Source: Candidatus Aenigmarchaeota archaeon LH_S7
GTDB lineage: Archaea > Aenigmatarchaeota > Aenigmatarchaeia > QMZS01
Assembly (NCBI GenBank): GCA_023659895.1
Contig: JAGXOL010000001.1
Span: 15,757 to 79,756 of the forward strand
DNA: 64,000 nt
Direction: 5' to 3'
The notes under the pieces are model-generated. The model was not told where the DNA came from, did no database searches, and saw only the letters and a list, made by a program, of their open reading frames with translations. Below, in pieces: positions 8,043-63,774 of the stretch. A program made the translations under genes and the position numbers. The first letter of the stretch is position 1. The number at the start of each line of letters is the position of its first letter.

Positions 8043-8154
8043 GCTGGGGTGGCAGAGTCAGGTTAATGCGGTGGACTCGAGATCCACTGGACCTAGTCCG
8101 CGCAGGTAGGTTTTTCTTGAAGAAAATCCCTGTAATCAAATCCTGCCCCCAGCG
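8043..8154 (+). tRNA. tRNA-Ser(CGA), class II, with a 28-nt intron in the T-loop (8108-8135, after T54)
   Basis: Acceptor GCTGGGG/CCCCAGC, 3-bp D-stem, anticodon arm GTGGA-CTCGAGA-TCCAC, variable hairpin GGAC-CTA-GTCC, T-stem GCAGG/CCTGC with loop split T|...|TCAAAT; exons total 84 nt. Confidence 0.7.
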
Positions 8155-22373: not shown

Positions 22374-22394
22374 TTTTTTCTTTTTTATAAATCA

Positions 22395-23585
22395 AAGGCA
22401 AGAAAACTCCCGAATTTATTCGTAGAGATGAATTGCCCTTAAATAGTTTAAAAACATAATTAAATATGGTTAGAGTCAGAAAAACAATTAAATGTAAAAT
22501 AATAAAACCAACAGAGTTAAAATTAAAACATTTAAACAAAGAATATAATAATGTCCAAGAACTGCTACAATTAGAATCTAAAGGAATTGAATTTCTGCCA
22601 ATCTTTCATTCTCTAAAGAAAAAAGTTTATTCTGCTAACTTACAACAGGCTTTAAGATTTTACAAGAAGATTAAACCAAATAAAGAATATCCAATATCCT
22701 TTAGAAAGGATTTGTTAGAAGTCAGGAAAACAGATAACAAACTATCTAAATATTGGGTTAAAATACCTACTAAACAAAGAAAAGGTGGTTTAAAATTAGC
22801 AATTAAATCACAACCTTTTAATTTTAAGGATTATGAGATTTGTGAATCCAAACTATTTAAAAAGAAAAATAATTGGTTTTTAAATCTAACAGTTCAAAAG
22901 GAAGTTGAACTGAATAATACTTATGACTCTGTTCTTAGTCTTGATTTGGGACAGAAGTATATGGGCGTATCAGTGATGCATCCATCTACTTTAATGATTC
23001 CTAAATTCTACGGCAAAGAAGTCAGAGGAATAAGAAGAAACTACGACTATATTAGGAAGCAACTTGGCAAAAATAAACTACTTAAAGAAATAAAAAGATT
23101 TGGACAGAAAGAGCAAAGAAAAGTAACTGATTGTCTCCATAAAATCTCTAATGAAATAGTGGATTTGGCTCTAACCAGTAATTCTACTATTGTTGTTGGA
23201 GACCTGAAAGGGATTAGAAAATCAGCAAAAGGTAAAGGTAGAAAGTTCAATAGGATTGTTTCAAATATGCCTTATCTGGAGTTAATTCAAATGCTTGAAT
23301 ACAAAGCAAATTGGGAAGGAATAAGGGTAATTAAAGTAAATGAAAGAGGAACAAGTCATACCTGCTCCAAATGTGGTAATGAAGGTTCAAGACCAAAGCA
23401 GGGAGTTTTCAATTGTTCTGTTTGTGGATTAAAAGACTATAATGCAGATGTGAATGGTGCTTCTAATATAGGTAATAAATTGTCTTCTGGGTATATCTTG
23501 GAAGATGGGGCAACCTTGACTTTGCCCGAAACTGATGTATATGAGACATCAGAATCTTCTGACTTTAGTCGTGGAGAATGTCAAA
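22395..23585 (+). mobile_element. IS200/IS605-family TnpB-only (IS1341-like) element, copy 1
   Basis: About 70 nt left end and about 40 nt right end plus ORF are about 90% identical to copy at 34509-35689; left-end hairpin GGCAA...TTGCC. Confidence 0.7.
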
Positions 23586-23590
23586 AATAA
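22466..23590 (+). CDS. tnpB: TnpB (OrfB) RNA-guided nuclease-family transposase-associated protein
   Basis: 374 aa; RuvC-like motifs and C-terminal zinc finger CSKCG...CSVCG...NADVNGASNI. Confidence 0.8.
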   Translation: MVRVRKTIKCKIIKPTELKLKHLNKEYNNVQELLQLESKGIEFLPIFHSLKKKVYSANLQQALRFYKKIKPNKEYPISFRKDLLEVRKTDNKLSKYWVKIPTKQRKGGLKLAIKSQPFNFKDYEICESKLFKKKNNWFLNLTVQKEVELNNTYDSVLSLDLGQKYMGVSVMHPSTLMIPKFYGKEVRGIRRNYDYIRKQLGKNKLLKEIKRFGQKEQRKVTDCLHKISNEIVDLALTSNSTIVVGDLKGIRKSAKGKGRKFNRIVSNMPYLELIQMLEYKANWEGIRVIKVNERGTSHTCSKCGNEGSRPKQGVFNCSVCGLKDYNADVNGASNIGNKLSSGYILEDGATLTLPETDVYETSESSDFSRGECQK

Positions 23591-24268: not shown

Positions 24269-24603
24269 AGCCCCGTCGTCTAGTGGCCAAATTCTTCTTT
24301 CTTTAGAAAAAAAGAAGCTTTTGATAGGAAGAAAGAAAAGGAAGGCTAAACTCCCGTTTTGGATGGAACCTTCCTCATAAACCTTGGGTTTATGGGGCCC
24401 CGAAAAACAAGTTTTTCGAGGTTTTAAAAAGGTTCCAGGGTTATGGATGCTGGCCTTTGGATATCAAAGGTTGGAGAAGCTAAAAAATTATTTTGGCTTC
24501 TATGATAGAAGACAGCCAGAGACCGCGGTTCGAATGGAACATCAAAAAGATAAAATTTACCAAATCCAAAAGAAAATAAGTTTCGGGAATCCGCGCGGGG
24601 CTA
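24269..24603 (+). tRNA. tRNA-Gln(UUG) interrupted by three introns: D-loop 24287-24440 (154 nt), anticodon loop 24461-24513 (53 nt), T-loop 24536-24590 (55 nt)
   Basis: Exons AGCCCCG-TC-GTCT-AGTGG | TTAT-GGAT-G-CTGGC-CTTTGG | A-GCCAG-AGAC-CGCGG-TTCGAAT | CCGCG-CGGGGCT-A sum to 73 nt; A1:U72 and anticodon loop CUUUGGA as in archaeal tRNA-Gln. Confidence 0.65.
24378..24437. repeat. conserved about 55-nt hairpin element, copy 1 (inside tRNA-Gln intron 1)
   Basis: GGTTTATGGGGCCCCGAAAAACAAGTTTTTCGAGGTTTTAAAAAGGTTCCA about 90% identical to 28705-28763; internal stem CGAAAAAC/GTTTTTCG. Confidence 0.5.
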
Positions 24604-24956
24604 TTAAATGTGACTTCCTCTCCCTGAATAAATTCAGGAGCTTCCTTAACCAAAACACTGTTTTGAATACAGAAGGCTGGCGAGGTTCTAAAGTCACTAA
24701 CAAAACTTACTATAGCAGAGGTTTTGGTCTGACACGCTTTAGTTTAGGGCTGAGTCACCTTTTTCAGATGCCTTATTTCACTATTGTAGGGTCAGCAACC
24801 CCGTCTTCCAAGATATACCCAGAAGACAATACAGGACATGTCCGTCCATATTTAATTATGTTTTAAAAGTATTAAAGGACAATTGAGCTACACGATTTAA
24901 ATCAGGAGTTTTCTTGCCTTTGGTTAAATATAAATAATTTAAAACAAAATAATTTT

Positions 24957-25808
24957 ATGAAGAAAGGTGTTAGCTCAGTAATGAGTATTATTTTATTAGT
25001 TGTTGTGGGAACCTCTTTGTCAGGTGTGGCTTATCATACTTATACTTCTATGACTAAGGATATTATTTCTGTTCAGGAAAAGCAGATAATAGGTGAGTTA
25101 GAGTTAGAAGAGTCAAAGGTAAGAATAGAAAAGGTTGGATATTGTAGTGTTAATATTAGGAATGTGGGAGACAATGATATAGATGTTAGTTCTTTAGAGG
25201 TTTATATAAATGATAAACATTTTAAAATTCCTACTACAGAAAATATTTTAGAAAAAAATGAGAACATCAGAATTAAGATAACTAGAGATATGTTGTCTGA
25301 TTTGGAAGCAGATATTTCTTTAAAAGTTGGAGGAAAAGTTAATGATATTGGAAGAATTATCTGTCCAATTCCAGTAAATGGTACCTTAAGAAAAAATAAT
25401 TGCAAGTCTGATGAAGTTTGTGTAATTGCTTTTTCTGCTCTTAATAATTCCCATGTTGAAGATTGTTCAGAAGGAAATTATCTTTATAAATTGTGTGTAG
25501 ATAATATTAATAATGTAACGATTACTTCTTCTGATTGTTCTGATGAAGAAGGTAGTCTTATTACTATGTCAGGGAATACAAATGCTCAAGTTGAGGAATA
25601 TCATTTACCTATAACAGGTTTTGCAACCAAGAAAAATGTTTGTATAAATTCTTCTTTAGGAGATGTAAATTGTATTTATGGTAATTGTTCGTCAAGTTAT
25701 TATAATCCGCTTTTTTCAATTTCAAACTTAACAATTTCAGAGTCAGCAAACGCTCATGTAGGAGATAAAGAGCACTATAACAAAGTAGTTTGCTGTAGGA
25801 TTCAATAA
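24957..25808 (+). CDS. secreted Cys-rich protein with archaeal type IV pilin-like (class III) signal peptide
   Basis: N-term MKKGVSSVMSIILLVVVGTSLSG; about 20 Cys in C-terminal two thirds. Confidence 0.4.
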   Translation: MKKGVSSVMSIILLVVVGTSLSGVAYHTYTSMTKDIISVQEKQIIGELELEESKVRIEKVGYCSVNIRNVGDNDIDVSSLEVYINDKHFKIPTTENILEKNENIRIKITRDMLSDLEADISLKVGGKVNDIGRIICPIPVNGTLRKNNCKSDEVCVIAFSALNNSHVEDCSEGNYLYKLCVDNINNVTITSSDCSDEEGSLITMSGNTNAQVEEYHLPITGFATKKNVCINSSLGDVNCIYGNCSSSYYNPLFSISNLTISESANAHVGDKEHYNKVVCCRIQ

Positions 25809-25840
25809 AAAGATTTTATTATAAATAAGAAACTATAATT

Positions 25841-26284
25841 ATGGTAGAAGAGTATGAAGTGGTTCCTATCACTCCTTTGAGAAAAATAGAAAAAAGGTTG
25901 GAAAAAATGGAGCAAGGATCTCCTGGATACAATGCTGTTTTGAGAGACTTGACAGAAATGATGAAGGAGAATCAAAAAGTAGTTGATAATCTGGTGAATA
26001 CGAACTCAGAACTTATATCAAATATAGGAACTTTATCAGAGAAGTTGGGTGAGCTGACTAAGAAGTTTGATGATTTTATGGATAGCATAGAAGTTGCGGA
26101 AACGAGTGAAGAACCAGAAGAATTTAAAACTTTGAAGGAACAGAACAAGAAATTGGAGGACACGAACCAGGAATTATCTGATAGACTGAAGAAACTGGAG
26201 AAGAGAACGAAAATGGCAGCTTTGAGTAGGTATTACTATCAAAGACCTCAACAACAAGGAAGTCAGAAAGGAGGGCAGTATTAA
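25841..26284 (+). CDS. coiled-coil hypothetical protein
   Basis: 147 aa, heptad-rich, Q/G-rich tail. Confidence 0.35.
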   Translation: MVEEYEVVPITPLRKIEKRLEKMEQGSPGYNAVLRDLTEMMKENQKVVDNLVNTNSELISNIGTLSEKLGELTKKFDDFMDSIEVAETSEEPEEFKTLKEQNKKLEDTNQELSDRLKKLEKRTKMAALSRYYYQRPQQQGSQKGGQY

Positions 26285-26286
26285 TT

Positions 26287-26625
26287 ATGGGAGAAGAAAA
26301 AAAGAAGGTGAATTTTGATATAGACCAAAATAAAGAGGGTTTTTACGCGAATAATATAGCAATTTTTAATAATCCTACTGAATTTGTCCTTGATTTTACT
26401 CAAGTCACACCAAGAATAAATATGGTTGAGGAAAAACAAATAGTTACTTATGTGGTCAAGCATAATGCTGTTGTCCTAGAACCAAAGCAGGCAAAAAATT
26501 TCTTTAATTTGTTAAAAGAGAATATTGAGAGATACGAGAAGAAATTTGGTAAGATACAACTACCAAAAGGAAAAAAGCAGAAGAAAGAGGGTTTACCAAA
26601 GAATTTTTCTGATTATATAGGTTAA
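26287..26625 (+). CDS. hypothetical protein
   Basis: 112 aa, start 3 nt after preceding stop. Confidence 0.35.
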   Translation: MGEEKKKVNFDIDQNKEGFYANNIAIFNNPTEFVLDFTQVTPRINMVEEKQIVTYVVKHNAVVLEPKQAKNFFNLLKENIERYEKKFGKIQLPKGKKQKKEGLPKNFSDYIG

Positions 26626-26654
26626 TTTGTTTTTATTTTTAAATAACTTTAATT

Positions 26655-26813
26655 ATGGCAAAGGAGAAAAGAAGAATGCCTATGACAAATGCTGGATTAA
26701 TAAATTATTCAGAGGAGGTAGAGGAAGGTATTAACTTAAGACCAGAGATTATATTAGGGGTTGGTTTTGGCATTTGTGCTCTTGTCTTGATATTGAGATT
26801 TGTGTTGATTTGA
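26655..26813 (+). CDS. preprotein translocase Sec61 beta / archaeal SecG-like small subunit (not in ORF track, 52 aa)
   Basis: MAKEKRRMPMTNAGLINYSEEVEEGINLRPEIILGVGFGICALVLILRFVLI: conserved AGLIxY motif then single C-terminal TM helix. Confidence 0.6.
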   Translation: MAKEKRRMPMTNAGLINYSEEVEEGINLRPEIILGVGFGICALVLILRFVLI

Positions 26814-26882
26814 TTTTTGTATTTTTTATGAGGTATTAGCTTATTCTCTATAATCTCTTCTTTTTTTAGAGGTAATAGATAT

Positions 26883-27263
26883 TTATTTTTTGTTCTCATC
26901 TTTTTTACTTGTTTTTTTCTCTTTACTCTTTTCCTCTTTTTCAGTTTTTTTCTTCTCTTTTACCTTGACCTCTTTTTCGTTCAAAACTTTTATTTTGTTT
27001 TTTGAGCAGTATTCTTGGATTTTTGCCCTCTTTTTATTTCCTATTTTGGAACTAATTACAATTTCCTTGGGTTTTTTTTCTTCTAGTTCATTTAGATTGC
27101 TTATAAATGGAATCTCCTCTTTTTTTGGTGTTTTATATCCTATTTTTGGTTTAAGGCCTTTCTTACCTTTTTTTATTTTGTTGGAAATCCCACGGGGCTT
27201 TCTCCACTTTCTTTTCAGTCTTTTAAACCTCCCTTCTTCAGATCTTTCAAATATTAATTTCAT
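26883..27263 (-). CDS. rpl32e: ribosomal protein L32e with Lys-rich C-terminal extension
   Basis: KRLKRKWRKPRGISNKIKKGKKGLKPKIGYKTPKK...NKIKVLN matches eL32 core. Confidence 0.7.
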   Translation of the reverse strand: MKLIFERSEEGRFKRLKRKWRKPRGISNKIKKGKKGLKPKIGYKTPKKEEIPFISNLNELEEKKPKEIVISSKIGNKKRAKIQEYCSKNKIKVLNEKEVKVKEKKKTEKEEKSKEKKTSKKDENKK

Positions 27264-27291
27264 AACATATAGAGAAATTTTATAAAGTAGT

Positions 27292-28173
27292 TCATTTTGT
27301 GGTTACAATAGGGTTTTTCAACACTAGAAGGGTGTGTTCAGAATGTGATATTTTGGAATCTCCTTTTAAAATTCTGTGTACACCCAAACAATTCCTGTCT
27401 GTTAGCTCCTTTAATGCAAGTCTTAATTTTATTCTACTTATATCTAACCAGCGATCTGAGAAAGGCATCCCTTCCCTATCTCTAAATTTTTCAATTATCT
27501 CGCGAGCTTCTTTTGTTCTACAAGGTTTTTCTTGCATCAGGGAATATGTTAAAGCGCGGTCATCATCTTTCTCTTTAATGAAATTTCTCCCTCGGGTTGC
27601 GAAGGGCTCTATTGCTATTGTTTGACCTTCTTGCAATTTGTAATGATAATCATTGTTATAGTTTGGAACTCTTGGCTCTGCGTGAACTAAAAATCTTTCC
27701 AATCCGTGGCCTGTAAGGTTTGTTATAGGGTTTAAATTGTAGTTTTTAATTGTTTCTTCTATTTTGGTTGCTATCTCATTTACATCTATTCCTGGCTTAA
27801 CAAGTTTTATTGCCTCCTGTAGAGCTTTGTCAGTTGCTTCCACTAAAATTTTATCTTCTTCTGAAAGTGCAACTGTGCAAGCAGTGTCCGCAATATAACC
27901 CTCAAAAGAAACACCAACATCCAACTTAACCAAATCATTTTCCTTGATTGTTGTTTCATCCCCTTTGTTAGGTGAGTAGTGAGCAGCAATTTCATTAATT
28001 GAGATGTTTAAAGGCCAAGCAGGGATTCCCCCTAATTCGCGAGTCCTTTTTTCAACTTGCTCAGCAATGTCAATAATCTTAGTTCCTGGCTTCACCATGG
28101 ATTTACCTTCCTCTCTAACAGTTTTAGCAATCTCACCAGATTTCTTGTATTTGTCAATAATCTTTTGGTCCAT
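27292..28173 (-). CDS. map: methionine aminopeptidase, type 2 (archaeal)
   Basis: 293 aa pita-bread fold motifs (VKPG, DIA, HYSPN, FEGYIADTA, HGLERF). Confidence 0.85.
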   Translation of the reverse strand: MDQKIIDKYKKSGEIAKTVREEGKSMVKPGTKIIDIAEQVEKRTRELGGIPAWPLNISINEIAAHYSPNKGDETTIKENDLVKLDVGVSFEGYIADTACTVALSEEDKILVEATDKALQEAIKLVKPGIDVNEIATKIEETIKNYNLNPITNLTGHGLERFLVHAEPRVPNYNNDYHYKLQEGQTIAIEPFATRGRNFIKEKDDDRALTYSLMQEKPCRTKEAREIIEKFRDREGMPFSDRWLDISRIKLRLALKELTDRNCLGVHRILKGDSKISHSEHTLLVLKNPIVTTK

Positions 28174-28233
28174 TTTTAATTTAGGATAAAAATTATTTAG
28201 ATTACAGATAAAGTCCCAAGAAAGCTACCGATT

Positions 28234-28671
28234 TTAGTGAGGGGAGAGTGTCAATTTTTTCTGTTCTTTTTCTACTACTGCTTTTTTTTCTCCAGAGGGT
28301 TTTTTGATTGTTCCACCAGCTTTGCTTATTTTTTCCTCAACTGTTTTGCTCCATTTATCCGCAATTATTTCAACTTTTTTATTTAACTCTCCTTCTCCAA
28401 GAAGTTTCATATATCCAAGTTCTTTTAAATTGATTTTGTTTCCTTTGAATTTTTCCAAATCCTTCAAGTTAATTACTTTTTCTTCTCCTTCCTTCTTCAA
28501 GGTTCTGTGAACAAAGTAATTAGGATTTTCTTTTAAGGTCTTAAAAATCTTGTGAGTTTTTGAGCCAGCCATTCCACTACCTCCTTTGTTACCTTTTCCT
28601 CTGTGCCTTTTTTTGCGGCCATAGCCACAGCTCCTTGAACCACGCATCTTCTGAGTTTTAGTTTTTCCCAT
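28234..28671 (-). CDS. rpl15: ribosomal protein L15 (uL15)
   Basis: MRGSRSCGYGRKKRHRGKGNKGGSGMAGS glycine/basic N-terminus of uL15. Confidence 0.8.
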   Translation of the reverse strand: MGKTKTQKMRGSRSCGYGRKKRHRGKGNKGGSGMAGSKTHKIFKTLKENPNYFVHRTLKKEGEEKVINLKDLEKFKGNKINLKELGYMKLLGEGELNKKVEIIADKWSKTVEEKISKAGGTIKKPSGEKKAVVEKEQKKLTLSPH

Positions 28672-28704
28672 AAGAACTTTTTTTATGAAATAATTTAAAA
28701 AGGT

Positions 28705-28763
28705 TCTACCGAAGGTTTATGGGGCCCGAAAACAAAGTTTTTCGAGGTTTCTAAAGGCTTCCA
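28705..28763. repeat. conserved about 55-nt hairpin element, copy 2 (between PIN-ATPase-KH gene end and rpl15 start)
   Basis: GGTTTATGGGGCCCGAAAACAAAGTTTTTCGAGGTTTCTAAAGGCTTCCA, homolog of 24378-24437. Confidence 0.5.
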
Positions 28764-28765
28764 AA

Positions 28766-30400
28766 TCACTTCTCAAGAATGTCTATATGAATCCCTAATC
28801 TATCTTCTAATTTGTCTATCTTTTTCCCTCTCTTCCCAATCAATTTAGGGATTGCTTCTTTGCTGATATAAATTTTAACCTTGTTACTAGAAACAAATTC
28901 TATTTTAGCTCTTGGGTCATATCTTTCAATTTCCCTTAGGACTTGTTCTCTTGCTAATTTTTCCACACCTGAATCTTCTTTCTCTTTCTCCTCAATAGGT
29001 ACAACAATTGTTTCCTCCCCATAGCTGTAGATCTCATATTCCAGTTTTCCTGTTTCAAATGAGTGGACTTCAACTAGAGGACGTGCTAAATCAGCTTCCT
29101 GCATCCCTGATGGAACTCTTACCTGCAGATTCAAGGAGTAAATTTCTTTTATTTCCCCATCCTCAACAAAGATTATTGTGTCTATAATGTTTTGTAACAT
29201 TCCTAGTTCAACCTTTCTTATGAATCTTTGTATTGCATCAATAGGATGGGAAGCATGAATTACACCTATCATTCCAACCCCAGCAAGCCGTAAATCACTA
29301 AAAACCCTAAAATCATAAGAAGTGCGGATTTCATCAAAGATTGTGTAATCAGGTCTAACCAACAACAGGATGTCCGCGGTTTTACCAAAATCCTTTAGCA
29401 AAGGAGCGTATTGAGTTATTTTTTTATCCACCTGCAAGTCCCTAGGACTTTCCATAGTCTTGACTACTTTATTCTTTTTGAGATAAAATTCTGCCATAGA
29501 AGCTGCTAGAGTTGATTTTCCACTTCCAGGAGGACCTGAAATTAAAATTCCCTCTGCTTTCTTTTCAACCCTTTCTTTCAATTTATCAGAAAGTTTGTAA
29601 TCATCTAAATCTAATTTTGCAATTGGTCTTATAATAGTTATTTCTTCCACACTTGAGAAGGGGGGTCTTGTAATAGAAATTCTCATGTCCCTAATTTGCA
29701 AGACCATTGCCCCGTGTTCTTCAAACTCAACAAATCCATATTCTTCCCTTCTCGCTTCTGTTAAAATATTTCTTGACAAACTTTCAAACTCATCTTTAGT
29801 TAGTTCCTCTTTTCTTAGTTTTTCAAGTCTTATTTTACCTGGCTTACCTCTTTTTGCCAGGGGGACACAATTGACTTTGAAATGGAGGGACATTGTGTTT
29901 TCCGTTAAAAAAGGAAGGAACTCAAGTTTCTGCTTCTCCTTTTCAACTTCCAAATATTGGACTTTTATATTATATACCTCAGCCACCAATGCTTGCACAA
30001 GGTCTCTTGTATACAAAACAGCTTTGTATTTCTTTGCTACATCCCTTATCATTGAATCTATGCTACCAGATTTAGCTAACTTAATTTCCTCCATGGTGGC
30101 TTTCCTTCCAACAAACTGCACTTTTATTTTCCTGTTGTTCAATTCTTTTATTTCCTCTAACCCAAGAAATCCTATTTCCTTACCTTTGTTCGCTTGTGCT
30201 TGCAGTTCATCAACAACAACTTCAGGAATTATAACTTTTATGTTTTTCAATTCTCCGCGATCTATTAATTCTGTAAGTTTTTTGGAGATTAGTATGCTTG
30301 TGTCAGGGACTATCTTTTTTTCTTTTGTGTTTTTATTTTGTTCAGTTTTAGCACTCTCTCTACTCTTTTTCTTAGTTGTTTCTTCTTTCTTTTTAATCAT
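28766..30400 (-). CDS. PIN-domain / P-loop ATPase / KH-domain protein (COG1855 family)
   Basis: N-term PIN (IVPDTSILI), Walker A ILISGPPGSGKSTLA, C-terminal KH (LIGKRGKKIDKLEDRLGI). Confidence 0.75.
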   Translation of the reverse strand: MIKKKEETTKKKSRESAKTEQNKNTKEKKIVPDTSILISKKLTELIDRGELKNIKVIIPEVVVDELQAQANKGKEIGFLGLEEIKELNNRKIKVQFVGRKATMEEIKLAKSGSIDSMIRDVAKKYKAVLYTRDLVQALVAEVYNIKVQYLEVEKEKQKLEFLPFLTENTMSLHFKVNCVPLAKRGKPGKIRLEKLRKEELTKDEFESLSRNILTEARREEYGFVEFEEHGAMVLQIRDMRISITRPPFSSVEEITIIRPIAKLDLDDYKLSDKLKERVEKKAEGILISGPPGSGKSTLAASMAEFYLKKNKVVKTMESPRDLQVDKKITQYAPLLKDFGKTADILLLVRPDYTIFDEIRTSYDFRVFSDLRLAGVGMIGVIHASHPIDAIQRFIRKVELGMLQNIIDTIIFVEDGEIKEIYSLNLQVRVPSGMQEADLARPLVEVHSFETGKLEYEIYSYGEETIVVPIEEKEKEDSGVEKLAREQVLREIERYDPRAKIEFVSSNKVKIYISKEAIPKLIGKRGKKIDKLEDRLGIHIDILEK

Positions 30401-30470
30401 AGTCTTGATTTTGGCTAAGCTTTTCTATTAAAATAGAAAAGTTCCATAATAAATTGAATAAAATAATATT

Positions 30471-34387: not shown

Positions 34388-34508
34388 AATTTATAAATCT
34401 AATTAATATTAATAGCTTTCTATAAAATTAGTTAGACCCTTTTTGGAACTTCCTTTGTTTCTTTAGTTTTAATTTGTAGTTATCTCTTGTCCTTCTTTTA
34501 TAATTAAA

Positions 34509-35689
34509 AAAGGCAAGAAAACTCCCAAATCGTGTAGAGGATTTGCCCTTAAATAATTTAAAAACATAATTAAATATGGTCTGTGTTAGAAAAACGATTA
34601 AATGCAAGATAATAAAGCCAACAGAGTTAAAGTTGAATCAATTAAACAAAGAAAATAACAATATTCAAGAACTGCTACAATTAGAAAAATTTGGTTTAGA
34701 TTTTCTACCTATTTACAATTCTCTTAAAAAGAAGGTTTATTCTGCAAATATACAACAAGCCTTAAGATTTTATAAAAAGATTAAATTAGATAAAGAATAT
34801 CCAATATCCTTTAGAAAAGATTTGTTAGAGATTAGGAAAACAGATAACAAACTTTCAGAGTATTGGGTTAAAATACCTACTAAACAAAGAAAAGGTGGAC
34901 TAAAGTTAGCAATTAAATCACAACCTTTTCTCTTTGAAGATTATGAGATTTGTGAATCTAAATTATTTAAAAAGAAAAATAATTGGTTTTTAAACCTAAC
35001 AGTTCAAAAAGAAGTTGAACTGAATAATACTTATTCCTCTGTTCTCGGTCTTGATTTGGGACAGAAGTATATGGGAGTATCGGTGATGCAACCATCTGCT
35101 TTAATGACTCCTAAATTCTACGGCAAAGAAGTCAGAGGAATAAGAAGAAAATACGACTATATTAGAAAGCAACTTGGTGAAAAGAAACTGCTTAAAGAAA
35201 TAAAAAGGTTTGGACAGAAGGAGCAAAGAAAAGTAACTGATTGTCTCCATAAAATCTCTAATGAAATAGTAGATTTGGCTCTAACCAGTAATTCTACTAT
35301 TGTTGTTGGAGACCTGAAAGGGATTAGAAAATCAGCGAAAGGCAGAAACTTCAATAGAATAATCTCAAATATGCCTTATTATCAATTAACACAAATGCTC
35401 GAATACAAAGCAAATTGGAGTGGGATAAGAGTGGTTAAAGTGAATGAAAGGGGAACAAGTCATACTTGTTGTAAATGTAGTTCTAAAGGTTCAAGACCAA
35501 AACAAGGAGTTTTCAATTGTTCTGTTTGTGGACTAAAAGACTACAATGCTGACATAAATGGTGCTACTAATATAGGTAATAAAGTGTCTTCTGGGTATAT
35601 CTTGGAAGATGGGGCAACATTGACTTTGCCCGAAACTGGTGCAATATGACATCAGAATCTCTTGACTTTAGTGATGGGAGAGGGTCAAA
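34509..35689 (+). mobile_element. IS200/IS605-family TnpB-only element, copy 2
   Basis: Homologous ends and ORF to copy 1; conserved sequence continues about 40 nt past tnpB stop (candidate omega/reRNA and right end). Confidence 0.7.
34576..35649 (+). CDS. tnpB: TnpB (OrfB) family protein, paralog of 22466-23590
   Basis: 357 aa, about 90% aa identity to copy 1; zinc finger CCKCS...CSVCG. Confidence 0.8.
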   Translation: MVCVRKTIKCKIIKPTELKLNQLNKENNNIQELLQLEKFGLDFLPIYNSLKKKVYSANIQQALRFYKKIKLDKEYPISFRKDLLEIRKTDNKLSEYWVKIPTKQRKGGLKLAIKSQPFLFEDYEICESKLFKKKNNWFLNLTVQKEVELNNTYSSVLGLDLGQKYMGVSVMQPSALMTPKFYGKEVRGIRRKYDYIRKQLGEKKLLKEIKRFGQKEQRKVTDCLHKISNEIVDLALTSNSTIVVGDLKGIRKSAKGRNFNRIISNMPYYQLTQMLEYKANWSGIRVVKVNERGTSHTCCKCSSKGSRPKQGVFNCSVCGLKDYNADINGATNIGNKVSSGYILEDGATLTLPETGAI

Positions 35690-48899: not shown

Positions 48900-49118
48900 A
48901 AAATAATAAAGAAATTAAGCAAAAAGATTTTACAATACTTAAAGTATTTTTGAATATTATTTTAAGACCTTTAAGATACCTACTAGATTGTGGTCTTGCA
49001 AAAATTATAAATCTAGTGGTTATATTTATAGGTTGATTATATCTACAAATTTAAATTATTACTCCATAATTCAATAAAGGTCTATACATATTATTAATAT
49101 TTTAATCGGTTTTTTTAT

Positions 49119-49348
49119 GGCGGGAGCTGGTCCATAGCGAACTTGCTTTTTAAGTATTAGTAAGTCTGTAAGGATGGAGCAGTTAGGAGTGCTCGTCGAA
49201 CCCTTTTCTCCCTATCGCTCTAAAAGCGTTCACGGAAAAAAAGAGAAATAGGTGCGGAAGGCTCATAAGGACCTTTTTAGAAAGAGGTTCTATCCAAAAT
49301 GCATTTGGGAGACCCGAAGGTCGGTGGTTCAAATCCACCTCCCGCTAT
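49119..49348 (+). tRNA. tRNA gene with about 150 nt of intervening sequence; identity unresolved (tentative anticodon arm GAACC-CTTTT...GGTTC would be Lys-UUU)
   Basis: 3' end GGTGG-TTCAAAT-CCACC-TCCCGCT-A pairs with GGCGGGA at 49119; internal D-arm-like GAGC-AGTTAGGAGT-GCTC at 49177-49194; several extra hairpins. Confidence 0.45.
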
Positions 49349-51092: not shown

Positions 51093-51127
51093 ATAAGTTT
51101 CTAAAGTAAGAAATTATGCGTTGGTGG

Positions 51128-51227
51128 TCTAGATCTTAACAATTTATTGTTTAGAGGACAATGGCATGATACAGCCCTGCCACGGCTGTGACCCGGGTTC
51201 GAATCCCGGCCAACGCAGAACAATTTT
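51128..51227 (+). tRNA. tRNA-Gly(GCC) with about 28 nt of insertion(s) between D-stem 5' strand and anticodon stem (51141-51181 region)
   Basis: GCGTTGG-TG-GTCT...CAGCC-CTGCCAC-GGCTG-TGAC-CCGGG-TTCGAAT-CCCGG-CCAACGC-A; D region is 41 nt instead of about 13. Confidence 0.65.
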
Positions 51228-51309: not shown

Positions 51310-51574
51310 GGGGTTGTGGTGTAACCTGGCAGCACTGCTGGCTCCAGTGGAATCTTTTTCTTTAAAAAAGAAAAACCTTCCAGTCAAAAAGAAATAGATT
51401 CCCTTCAGTCAAAAAGAAAATGGAGTTATGACGCTTCGCGGATGAATGAAGAAACCAGCCAATCCCGGTTCAAATGGAACTTTTAGAAAAAGTTCCATCA
51501 AAACAAGCTTTTAAAAAAGCTTGAGCAAAAAAGGAACCTTTTCTAAAAAGATTCTGAAAATCCGGGCAACCCCA
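51310..51574 (+). tRNA. tRNA-Trp(CCA) with two introns: canonical 37/38 (51348-51453, 106 nt) and T-loop (about 51476-51561, 86 nt)
   Basis: Exons GGGGTTG-TG-GTGT-AACCTGGCA-GCAC-T-GCTGG-CTCCAG | A-CCAGC-CAAT-CCCGG-TTCAAAT | CCGGG-CAACCCC-A give a 73-nt cloverleaf. Confidence 0.7.
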
Positions 51575-51682
51575 GGAGATTTTTGGAGCTTCCACTTCCA
51601 TAAAAACCTCCAGCCAAAACCTGATTAATAGGAAAGGTTGCATCCAGAAAAAGAAACATATTTTTAATATTATAATTATATT

Positions 51683-63386: not shown

Positions 63387-63462
63387 GATTTTGTTAAATT
63401 ATTAATCAGTTTTGGATGTAACTTTCCTGTTTTTGGCTGAAGCCTTTTCCATGGAAAACTTC

Positions 63463-63716
63463 TGGGCTGGGGCAGATTTTCAAATTATTTTTCTTTTGGA
63501 GTTGGTAGACCTTTTCTTTCTAAAAGAAAAGGCATGCCTTTGAACTGCCGATCTTCGCCTTTCTCTTGTTTTTGGATGAAATCTCAAAGCATTGTAACTA
63601 CAAATTTATTATTTTCGTAGTTACCTTACTTTGTTTCTAAAAGGTTTTCTGTAAGGGCGACGTCCTAACCAATTATCTCCATAGTGATTTTCACTAATGG
63701 TCTAGACCACCAGCCC
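63463..63716 (-). tRNA. tRNA-Val(UAC) with three introns: D-loop (plus 63672-63701, 30 nt), canonical 37/38 (63561-63649, 89 nt), T-loop (63477-63538, 62 nt)
   Basis: Minus-strand exons GGGCTGG-TG-GTCT-AG | TGGTTA-GGAC-G-TCGCC-CTTACA | A-GGCGA-AGATC-GGCAG-TTCAAA | T-CTGCC-CCAGCCC-A sum to exactly 73 nt with fully complementary stems. Confidence 0.8.
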
Positions 63717-63774
63717 ATAAACTATTATTAATCTTTAAAAATCGGATATTTAAATTTTGAGTGGAAGTTATAAA

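Follow-up and report, generated by a model that had tools for sequence, protein, structure and literature searches.

The stretch analyzed here (hereafter the window) comprises 64,000 nt of contig JAGXOL010000001.1 from Candidatus Aenigmarchaeota archaeon LH_S7, with a G+C content of 31.5%, and carries a short hairpin-bearing segment in two copies located 4.3 kb apart. The first copy lies within an intron of a tRNA-Gln gene (locus 1), the second in the spacer between a PIN-domain ATPase gene and rpl15 (locus 2). The following features of the two loci are relevant:

24269-24603, plus strand: tRNA-Gln(UUG) gene, with exons at 24269-24290, 24445-24460, 24514-24534 and 24590-24603
24291-24444, plus strand: intron 1 of tRNA-Gln, 154 nt, non-canonical, at the D-loop/D-stem junction
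24366-24384, plus strand: inverted partner GGAACCTT-CCT-CATAAACC, directly 5' of copy 1
24387-24437, plus strand: shared core of copy 1, GGTTTATGG + GGCCCC-hairpin-GAGG + TTTTAAAAAGGTTCCA, within intron 1
24401-24418, plus strand: hairpin of copy 1, CGAAAAA / CAAG / TTTTTCG, from folding and direct reading of the sequence
24423-24435, plus strand: 13-mer TTTAAAAAGGTTC at the 3' end of copy 1
24439-24446, plus strand: GGTTATGG, a second short copy of the first 9 nt of the core and the 3' splice motif of intron 1
24461-24513, plus strand: intron 2 of tRNA-Gln, at the canonical 37/38 position
24535-24589, plus strand: intron 3 of tRNA-Gln, in the T-loop
28234-28671, minus strand: rpl15 (Ribosomal_L27A family), the gene downstream of copy 2
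28694-28706, plus strand: second, exact occurrence of the 13-mer TTTAAAAAGGTTC, located before copy 2 at a distance of 7 nt
28714-28763, plus strand: shared core of copy 2, situated between the stop codon of the PIN-ATPase gene and the rpl15 promoter, antisense to both genes
28727-28744, plus strand: hairpin of copy 2, CGAAAA / CAAAGT / TTTTCG, from folding
28766-30400, minus strand: gene for a PIN-domain/T2SSE-type ATPase, whose stop codon (28766-28768) directly abuts copy 2

A repeated segment in permuted order

An initial annotation made from the sequence had already reported a repeat at these two places with about 90% identity. Both positions were confirmed by alignment, blastn and shuffling, and the identity was indeed high, although the measured value was 86%: copies 1 and 2, both on the plus strand, agree at 44 of 51 positions with one 1-nt gap (MAFFT and local alignment), the common core reading GGTTTATGGGG(C)CCCGAAAA..AAGTTTTTCGAGGTTT..AAAGG.TTCCA. 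The copy pair obtained a blastn E-value of about 5e-10 with the whole window as target, and its local alignment score was 36, compared to 6.6 +/- 1.3 in shuffled sequences. When all non-coding stretches of the window (9.7 kb) were compared with one another, it was the sole repeat of such quality besides the ends of insertion sequences (IS). Chance similarity, which the initial annotation had rightly considered unlikely at such a length, is therefore ruled out by the E-value, the shuffle scores, the non-coding comparison and the control counts for the 13-mer given below.

The homology extends beyond the core. The 13-mer from the 3' end of copy 1 recurs exactly in the left flank of copy 2, and no 13-nt exact match to the copy-1 region was found in any of 6025 control windows; aligned to the body of copy 1, this flank obtained a local score of 15 against 6.9 +/- 1.5. 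If the segments are named a for GGTT(T)ATGG, Y for the part from GGCCC via the hairpin to GAGG, and b for the 13-mer, their order is a-Y-b-a at locus 1 and b-a-Y-b at locus 2. The ancestral 3' splice motif, which straddles the splice site, forms the final segment a of locus 1. Read on the minus strand, the rpl15 TATA box overlaps with the first segment b of locus 2, and because the TTTAAA part of this segment is ancestral, one junction of the new material falls into a short shared stretch (microhomology). At locus 1, the inverted partner GGAACCTT-CCT-CATAAACC is the reverse complement of both ends of copy 1 and is predicted to form a three-way structure with it (z -3.3 to -4.4), whereas no such partner is present at locus 2. 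Partner and copy 1 together read as a probable inverted duplication, one arm of which lacks Y. We take this inverted partner and the permuted order of the segments as marks of DNA rearrangement.

Both loci and their counterparts in related genomes

Because of its three introns, the unspliced tRNA-Gln gene was missed by both ARAGORN and Rfam. The joined exons form a 73-mer, which was accepted by ARAGORN as tRNA-Gln(ttg) and matches the tRNA-Gln of the related contig L004, a gene that is intronless at the intron-1 position; removal of the 154-nt segment restores a canonical tRNA, as it should for an intron. Introns 2 and 3 are bracketed by textbook bulge-helix-bulge (BHB) motifs with scores of 13.5 and 10 in a simple BHB scanner. 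Intron 1 possesses a relaxed BHB core only, GGCC[AA|A] with GGUU[AU|G], which consists of 4 bp, 3-nt bulges and outer helices of 1–2 bp and is also present in the related contig L009. The initial annotation had correctly placed copy 1 inside intron 1 but let it end at the 3' splice site, whereas the shared core actually stops 7 nt before the 24444/24445 border. It had further described a partial third iteration of the element behind copy 1. The sequence is there, but it is the ancestral 3' splice motif GGTTATGG, which spans the splice site with GGUU pairing to the exon GGCC and AU|G forming the bulge, and which has the counterpart GGGTTAA|GG in L009. An open reading frame of 160 aa starting at the element (24384-24866) was discarded as spurious, as it crosses the tRNA exons. 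The canonical intron at 24461-24513 was orthologous in all four genomes compared, with a hairpin loop that is about 10 nt larger in the window (AAAAAATTAT).

Copy 2 lies between the stop codon of the gene labelled PIN-ATPase-KH in the initial annotation and the rpl15 start at 28671, as stated there, both genes being encoded on the minus strand. The spacer from the ATPase stop codon to the rpl15 start measures 94 nt, and copy 2 fills the part between the stop codon and the rpl15 TATA box TTTTTAAAT (minus strand), which is centred about 26 nt upstream of the ATG. We found no BHB motif bracketing copy 2, with best scores of 11 on the plus and 8.5 on the minus strand compared to a background of 9.5 +/- 1.7 and a 95th percentile of 12.

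For comparison, we used metagenomic contigs whose methionine aminopeptidase (MAP) or ATPase proteins are 72–86% identical to those of the window. Named homologues of the PIN-ATPase, MAP and the transposon-associated protein TnpB were mostly from Aenigmatarchaeota (DPANN). The gene order TIM, tRNA-Gln, ..., L32e, MAP, rpl15 is conserved in the contigs of the relatives, and the element is absent from them at both sites (L004, L009 and L010 for tRNA-Gln; L004 and L009 upstream of rpl15). Their tRNA-Gln genes are interrupted as follows:

L004: canonical intron only
L010: a different D-loop intron (A), the canonical intron and a T-loop intron
L009, the closest relative: D-loop, canonical and T-loop introns, and an intron at the intron-1 position

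The intron of L009 at the intron-1 position has a length of 57 nt and does not contain the element. Only its last 17 nt or so, which make up the 3' splice motif, are common to both genomes (AAAGTTCGGGTTAA|GG in L009 vs. AAAGGTTCCAGGGTTAT|GG in the window). The 3' part of the unit is therefore ancestral intron sequence, which traces this part back to the intron. The intron content of tRNAs varies quickly in this lineage of Aenigmatarchaeota, with BHB introns being gained, lost and remodelled.

At the other locus, the ATPase-rpl15 spacer of L004 measures 56 nt instead of 94 nt, and no more than the segment reaching from the TATA box to the ATG can be aligned. Copy 2 was found unchanged in contig L002 from a conspecific metagenome-assembled genome (98–99.6% nucleotide identity) and in the Logan contig L001, and thus is no assembly artefact of a single genome. 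Judged by these comparisons, both copies are gains of this species or its immediate ancestors. Position 1 of L001 corresponds to window position 28750, so that this contig ends inside copy 2 where the copies start to differ; this could be due to low coverage or to a graph branch arising from another copy in the sample.

Several further observations were made on this region. In the relative with 82–86% identity, the PIN-ATPase and rpl15 genes are found on two contigs which both end in the spacer (L003 11621-11883 and L009 1-1094), and in L009, rpl15 is preceded by over 1 kb of other DNA with two open reading frames. The ATPase-rpl15 spacer seems prone to insertions. On the other side of the ATPase gene, the divergent AMMECR1/PIN-ATPase spacer (30401-30470) is 70 nt long compared to 5–23 nt in L003 and L004, and holds a hairpin, CTTTTCTATTAAAATAGAAAAG-TTCCAT, that is similar to hairpin modules of introns.

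Origin of the shared segment

We regard the element as a recent DNA-level duplicate of fast-evolving, non-canonical tRNA intron sequence that is young, species-specific and devoid of a demonstrated function of its own, an explanation to which we give about an even chance. Intron 1 would then have grown from about 57 to 154 nt via local rearrangements, including the inverted duplication, and some 50–70 nt of intron material would have been copied over 4.3 kb to replace the sequence between the ATPase stop codon and the rpl15 TATA box. The copying would have taken place at the DNA level, through repair of the ectopic or template-switch type or because a short tandem or circular form of the unit was inserted, and its direction would have been from the intron to the spacer, at least for segments a and b. 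The hairpin and the GGGGCCCC palindrome would merely be passengers. At locus 1, the segment would be removed together with the intron by the splicing endonuclease, and the copy at rpl15 would be tolerated because it lies upstream of the core promoter; the duplicate is presumed to be neutral.

Several points weigh against this explanation. Intron 1 scores poorly under strict BHB criteria (5, compared to a background best of 9.5 per 160 nt). The intron-module likeness of locus 2 is unspecific, since the control spacer at 30401-30470 is equally similar to the modules. An identity of 86% over 51 nt in otherwise fast-changing non-coding DNA could result from selection on the sequence. Two copies in a single species do not suffice to demonstrate in which direction or by which mechanism the copying took place, and with about 100 kb of DNA from this species covered by the search, a third source locus may exist elsewhere.

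The last point leads to an unlikely but still serious alternative, namely that both loci were copied from a third source, either a dispersed family resembling miniature inverted-repeat transposable elements (MITEs) or another intron, and became a tRNA intron or a spacer insertion depending on the landing site. As now arranged, a-Y-b-a and b-a-Y-b, neither locus is derivable from the other, and the bases following the 13-mer at locus 2 (GGTTC-TACCGAA) are closer to those of introns with GGTTC-TATCCAA and GGTC-TACCAA than to copy 1. Moreover, intron modules related to one another are found in several tRNAs and species and at varying positions, the AMMECR1-ATPase spacer carries a module-like hairpin that is absent in relatives, and contig L001 stops inside copy 2 exactly at the divergence point. 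Many introns of the interrupted tRNAs of the window (listed further below) contain a hairpin module, GGAAC-TTTTAGAAAAA-GTTCC, followed by ATCCAAAA, and the T-loop introns of the Pro-like tRNA of the window and of tRNA-Gln in L010 share the same first 28 nt. This module, in the form GGAAC-TTTTAGAAAAA-GTTCC-ATCAAAA, recurs across tRNAs and positions, but the shared core of the two copies matches no other intron in the window or the relatives. When the whole window was searched with a profile hidden Markov model of the module, hits 6 and 7 were found adjoining the copies, at 24356-24379 (minus strand) and 28695-28713 (plus strand), with E-values of 0.2–0.35; we do not build on these hits. The idea that locus 2 as a whole represents an element of the intron family was downgraded because of the equally similar control spacer.

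The search for further copies speaks against a third source. None was detected in the window, even by blastn with a word size of 7, nor in about 35 kb of other contigs from the same species group, which were reached through TnpB paralogues and the proteins at the window ends, the Logan contigs at the window ends adding about 1.4 kb. At the copy density of the window, about one copy would be expected in these additional 35 kb, and its absence there is only weak evidence. The pattern TTATGGGGCCC N5-14 GTTTTTCGAGG gave no match in the GTDB representative genomes or the JGI metagenomes; looser half-patterns produced four chance matches in bacteria, and another one at least 120 matches, none of them longer than the seed. 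Five scans of IMG/VR yielded either nothing or chance matches in G+C-rich contigs, and the phage and plasmid collections contained chance-level fragments only. These public collections did not include the source genome in the DNA searched, and an exact pattern of about 20 bases would miss most copies of 86% identity. In addition, the element shows neither terminal inverted repeats nor a consistent target-site duplication, the flanking direct repeats being unlike at the two loci (GGTTTATGG at one and TTTAAAAAGGTTC at the other), and resembles neither the TnpB elements at their ends nor their deleted derivative or the omega-RNA region. Of the functions suggested in the initial annotation, a miniature mobile element comes nearest, yet the usual sense of a MITE does not apply: with a copy number of two in about 100 kb, undefined ends and no likeness to the ends of the resident TnpB elements, the segment lacks what characterizes MITEs or palindromic elements of the IS200/IS605 type. 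Within the DNA searched, there are neither further copies nor conservation in relatives, the outcome for which the initial annotation had kept a recent local duplication in reserve. This fallback turned out to fit best, the duplicated material being intron sequence.

Returning to the duplication of intron sequence, the form of the intermediate can be considered separately. It appears quite improbable to us that the unit goes back to an earlier intron of about 51 nt (GGGGCCCC...GGGTTAT) which was spliced out, circularised, copied as a head-to-tail multimer and integrated, with the GGTTTAT|GGGGCCC joints at both loci representing the circle junctions. Such an origin would be consistent with the permuted segments, the presence of more than one unit length at each locus, the coincidence of the unit end with the exact 3' splice motif, and a length close to that of the 57-nt intron 1 of L009; moreover, circular intron RNAs are a normal product of archaeal splicing (PMC12558985). 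However, Tandem Repeats Finder reported no array at either locus, with partial repeats extending over 8–14 nt only, no reverse transcriptase is known here (no search was made for one), and we found no precedent for retro-copying of a BHB intron in the literature searched. The inverted duplication beside copy 1 also shows rearrangement at the DNA level, which is a simpler source of the pattern. A wider version, which we consider decidedly unlikely, takes both loci as footprints of BHB intron movement: a unit of about 52 nt with intron ends, present as a circular or tandem intermediate, would have been copied to a site outside of tRNA genes, beside the rpl15 promoter, and its partner, which is still spliced out of pre-tRNA-Gln, would be complementary to the transcript there. 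If true, this would provide direct sequence evidence that BHB introns spread as small mobile units of DNA or RNA origin, even to non-tRNA targets, as well as an intron-to-mRNA antisense pair in an archaeon.

The mechanism by which non-canonical tRNA introns spread in archaea is unknown and supposed to operate at the DNA level (PMC4090602). In Thermoproteales, similar intron families at different tRNA positions have been read as intron transposition (Fujishima et al. 2010, as represented in PMC4090602), and multi-intron tRNAs of DPANN archaea have been linked to broad-specificity splicing endonucleases (PMC5829648). The present case resembles the intron transposition known from these groups in that copy 1 resides in a non-canonical intron of a multi-intron tRNA, the intron content differs among close relatives, and modules recur at different tRNA positions. 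It differs in that copy 2 lies outside any tRNA or recognisable BHB context, only part of the intron is shared, whereas whole introns move between tRNA genes there, and the shared core occurs in no other intron compared. In Caldiarchaeum subterraneum, intron gain and scattering of tRNA fragments have been attributed to a mobile element (Sugahara et al. 2012, PMC3293823). Both cases have in common that a tRNA intron was recently gained or remodelled, that related sequence occurs at another locus and that the genome harbours active mobile elements, but here no tRNA exon fragment is scattered, no recombinase-bearing element joins the loci, and no TnpB sequence is shared. The segment is also similar to MITEs and palindromic derivatives of IS200/IS605 elements in being short, hairpin-bearing, non-coding and located in a genome with active TnpB elements of the IS200/IS605 family, but unlike them has two known copies, no defined ends, no target-site signature and no similarity to the ends of resident elements.

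While this setting of non-canonical introns, rapid gain and loss, and mobile elements is known, the new aspect would be a partial intron copy outside of a tRNA or BHB context, for which the evidence is thin: one pair in one species is an anecdote. An intron-derived segment in an ordinary spacer, with permuted order and empty sites in relatives, is the type of intermediate that is able to show if copying is DNA-based and if a tRNA or BHB target is needed. It also indicates that intron material can land against the core promoter of an essential gene.

Tested functions and further features of the window

In the best reading, the element is neither an RNA gene nor a regulatory site in its own right. 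The initial annotation had ascribed a stem of 7–8 bp to both copies, and copy 1 indeed forms 7 bp (24401-24407 with 24412-24418, loop CAAG), prolonged via a C.A mismatch to GGCC/GGUU. The stem of copy 2 is only 6 bp long, and the AC-to-CA change that weakens it is not compensated; the predicted fold of copy 2 was no better than those of shuffled sequences (z -1.3 and -0.3). A check for covariation could draw on two sequences only, and between them compensatory stem changes are absent and the existing differences weaken the stem. No Rfam family was matched by the element at gathering or lenient thresholds with E-values up to 5. The small non-coding RNA proposed in the initial annotation thus finds no backing, as there is no family match, the relatives lack the element, and the differences between the copies are uncompensated; what defines a conserved structured RNA (a family, presence in relatives, covariation) is missing. 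The proposed terminator or attenuator found no support either. Archaeal termination needs an oligo-T run, and a consensus scan of 28500-28900 revealed no terminator-like site, the T runs on the minus strand falling inside the stem (TTTGTTTT).

Because the copies have the same orientation, the plus-sense intron is antisense to the genes flanking copy 2. This raises the possibility, which we hold to be a long shot, that the RNA of the excised and probably circular intron 1 serves as a trans-acting antisense RNA against the minus-strand transcript, from the 3' end of the PIN-ATPase gene into the rpl15 promoter region, and would lower or process this transcript. The predicted duplex reaches -86.7 kcal/mol, compared to -44 +/- 7.6 in control windows, archaeal tRNA introns persist as circles (PMC12558985), and a precedent may be seen in the fitRNAs, free tRNA introns of yeast that regulate mRNAs by way of long complementarity (bioRxiv 10.1101/2025.11.19.689297). 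In comparison with the fitRNAs, a tRNA intron with long complementarity to a transcript from a protein-coding region is the common trait, and the differences are the other domain of life and splicing context, the intergenic site instead of an mRNA body, and the fact that the archaeal case is known from sequence alone. However, this complementarity is an automatic consequence of the duplication and has no evidential weight of its own, the target site is situated behind the stop codon and ahead of the probably leaderless rpl15 start, which leaves no obvious effect on either gene, and the pairing exists in none of the relatives examined.

We consider it very improbable that the palindrome CGAAAAAC-AA-GTTTTTCG is the DNA site of a dimeric regulator at the rpl15 promoter, with the intron copy being incidental. 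The palindrome is an inverted repeat with its centre about 61 nt upstream of the rpl15 start, and a 25-nt stretch identical to copy 1 occurs in the DPANN-like contig L088 (and in L026) in a divergent promoter next to the gene for eIF-1A. On the other hand, the half-sites differ between the copies by the AC-to-CA change, the palindrome is absent upstream of rpl15 in relatives, and the L088 match, from a distant organism, was seeded on 19 of its 25 bases plus the hairpin pattern among the at least 120 chance matches mentioned above. The 25-mer in question, GAAAAACAAGTTTTTCGAGGTTTTA, is located at 7334-7358 of L088 and 1275-1299 of L026, in a distant archaeal divergent promoter region; L088 encodes eIF-1A and a diphthamide synthase, the latter 31% identical to that of the window. 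We rejected this match as a seed-driven hairpin coincidence.

Apart from tRNA-Gln, the window contains further interrupted tRNA genes, more than the tools report from unspliced sequence; their spliced forms were accepted by ARAGORN. These genes and the mobile elements are:

8043-8154, plus strand: tRNA-Ser(CGA), with an insertion in the T-arm region; the only tRNA in the window reported by Rfam
about 49118-49347, plus strand: tRNA-Met(CAU), with three introns near 7/8, 29/30 and 37/38; spliced 75-mer accepted by ARAGORN
51119-51216, plus strand: tRNA-Gly(GCC), with its true 5' exon at 51119-51133, followed by a D-loop intron
about 51310-51575, plus strand: Pro-like tRNA adjoining tRNA-Gly, with D-region and T-loop introns
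about 63466-63720, minus strand: tRNA-Val(UAC), with three introns (D-loop after GTCTAG, canonical, T-loop); spliced 74-mer accepted by ARAGORN
22378-23590 and 34494-35688, plus strand: full TnpB elements of the IS200/IS605 family, about 85% identical to each other
24799-24944, minus strand: internally deleted TnpB derivative, 200 nt downstream of tRNA-Gln

One of the TnpB insertion sequences is located 1 kb upstream of tRNA-Gln. The TnpB copy at 34494-35688 is absent from the conspecific contig L002, which indicates recent movement of this element. The tRNA-Met gene was missed by both ARAGORN and Rfam, and the ARAGORN call for tRNA-Gly (51145-51216) is misplaced. The tRNA-Ser(CGA) of L009 was recognized by ARAGORN as an uninterrupted 86-mer. 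The D-loop intron of tRNA-Val opens with ACC and a hairpin, a start also seen in the tRNA-Gln D-loop introns of L009 and L010. Finally, the 3' trailers of tRNA-Val (63400-63492, minus strand) and the Pro-like tRNA (51545-51630, plus strand) are homologous and share CAGCCAAAAC, CTGATTAATA and GGAAAGTTACATCCAAAA-like motifs.

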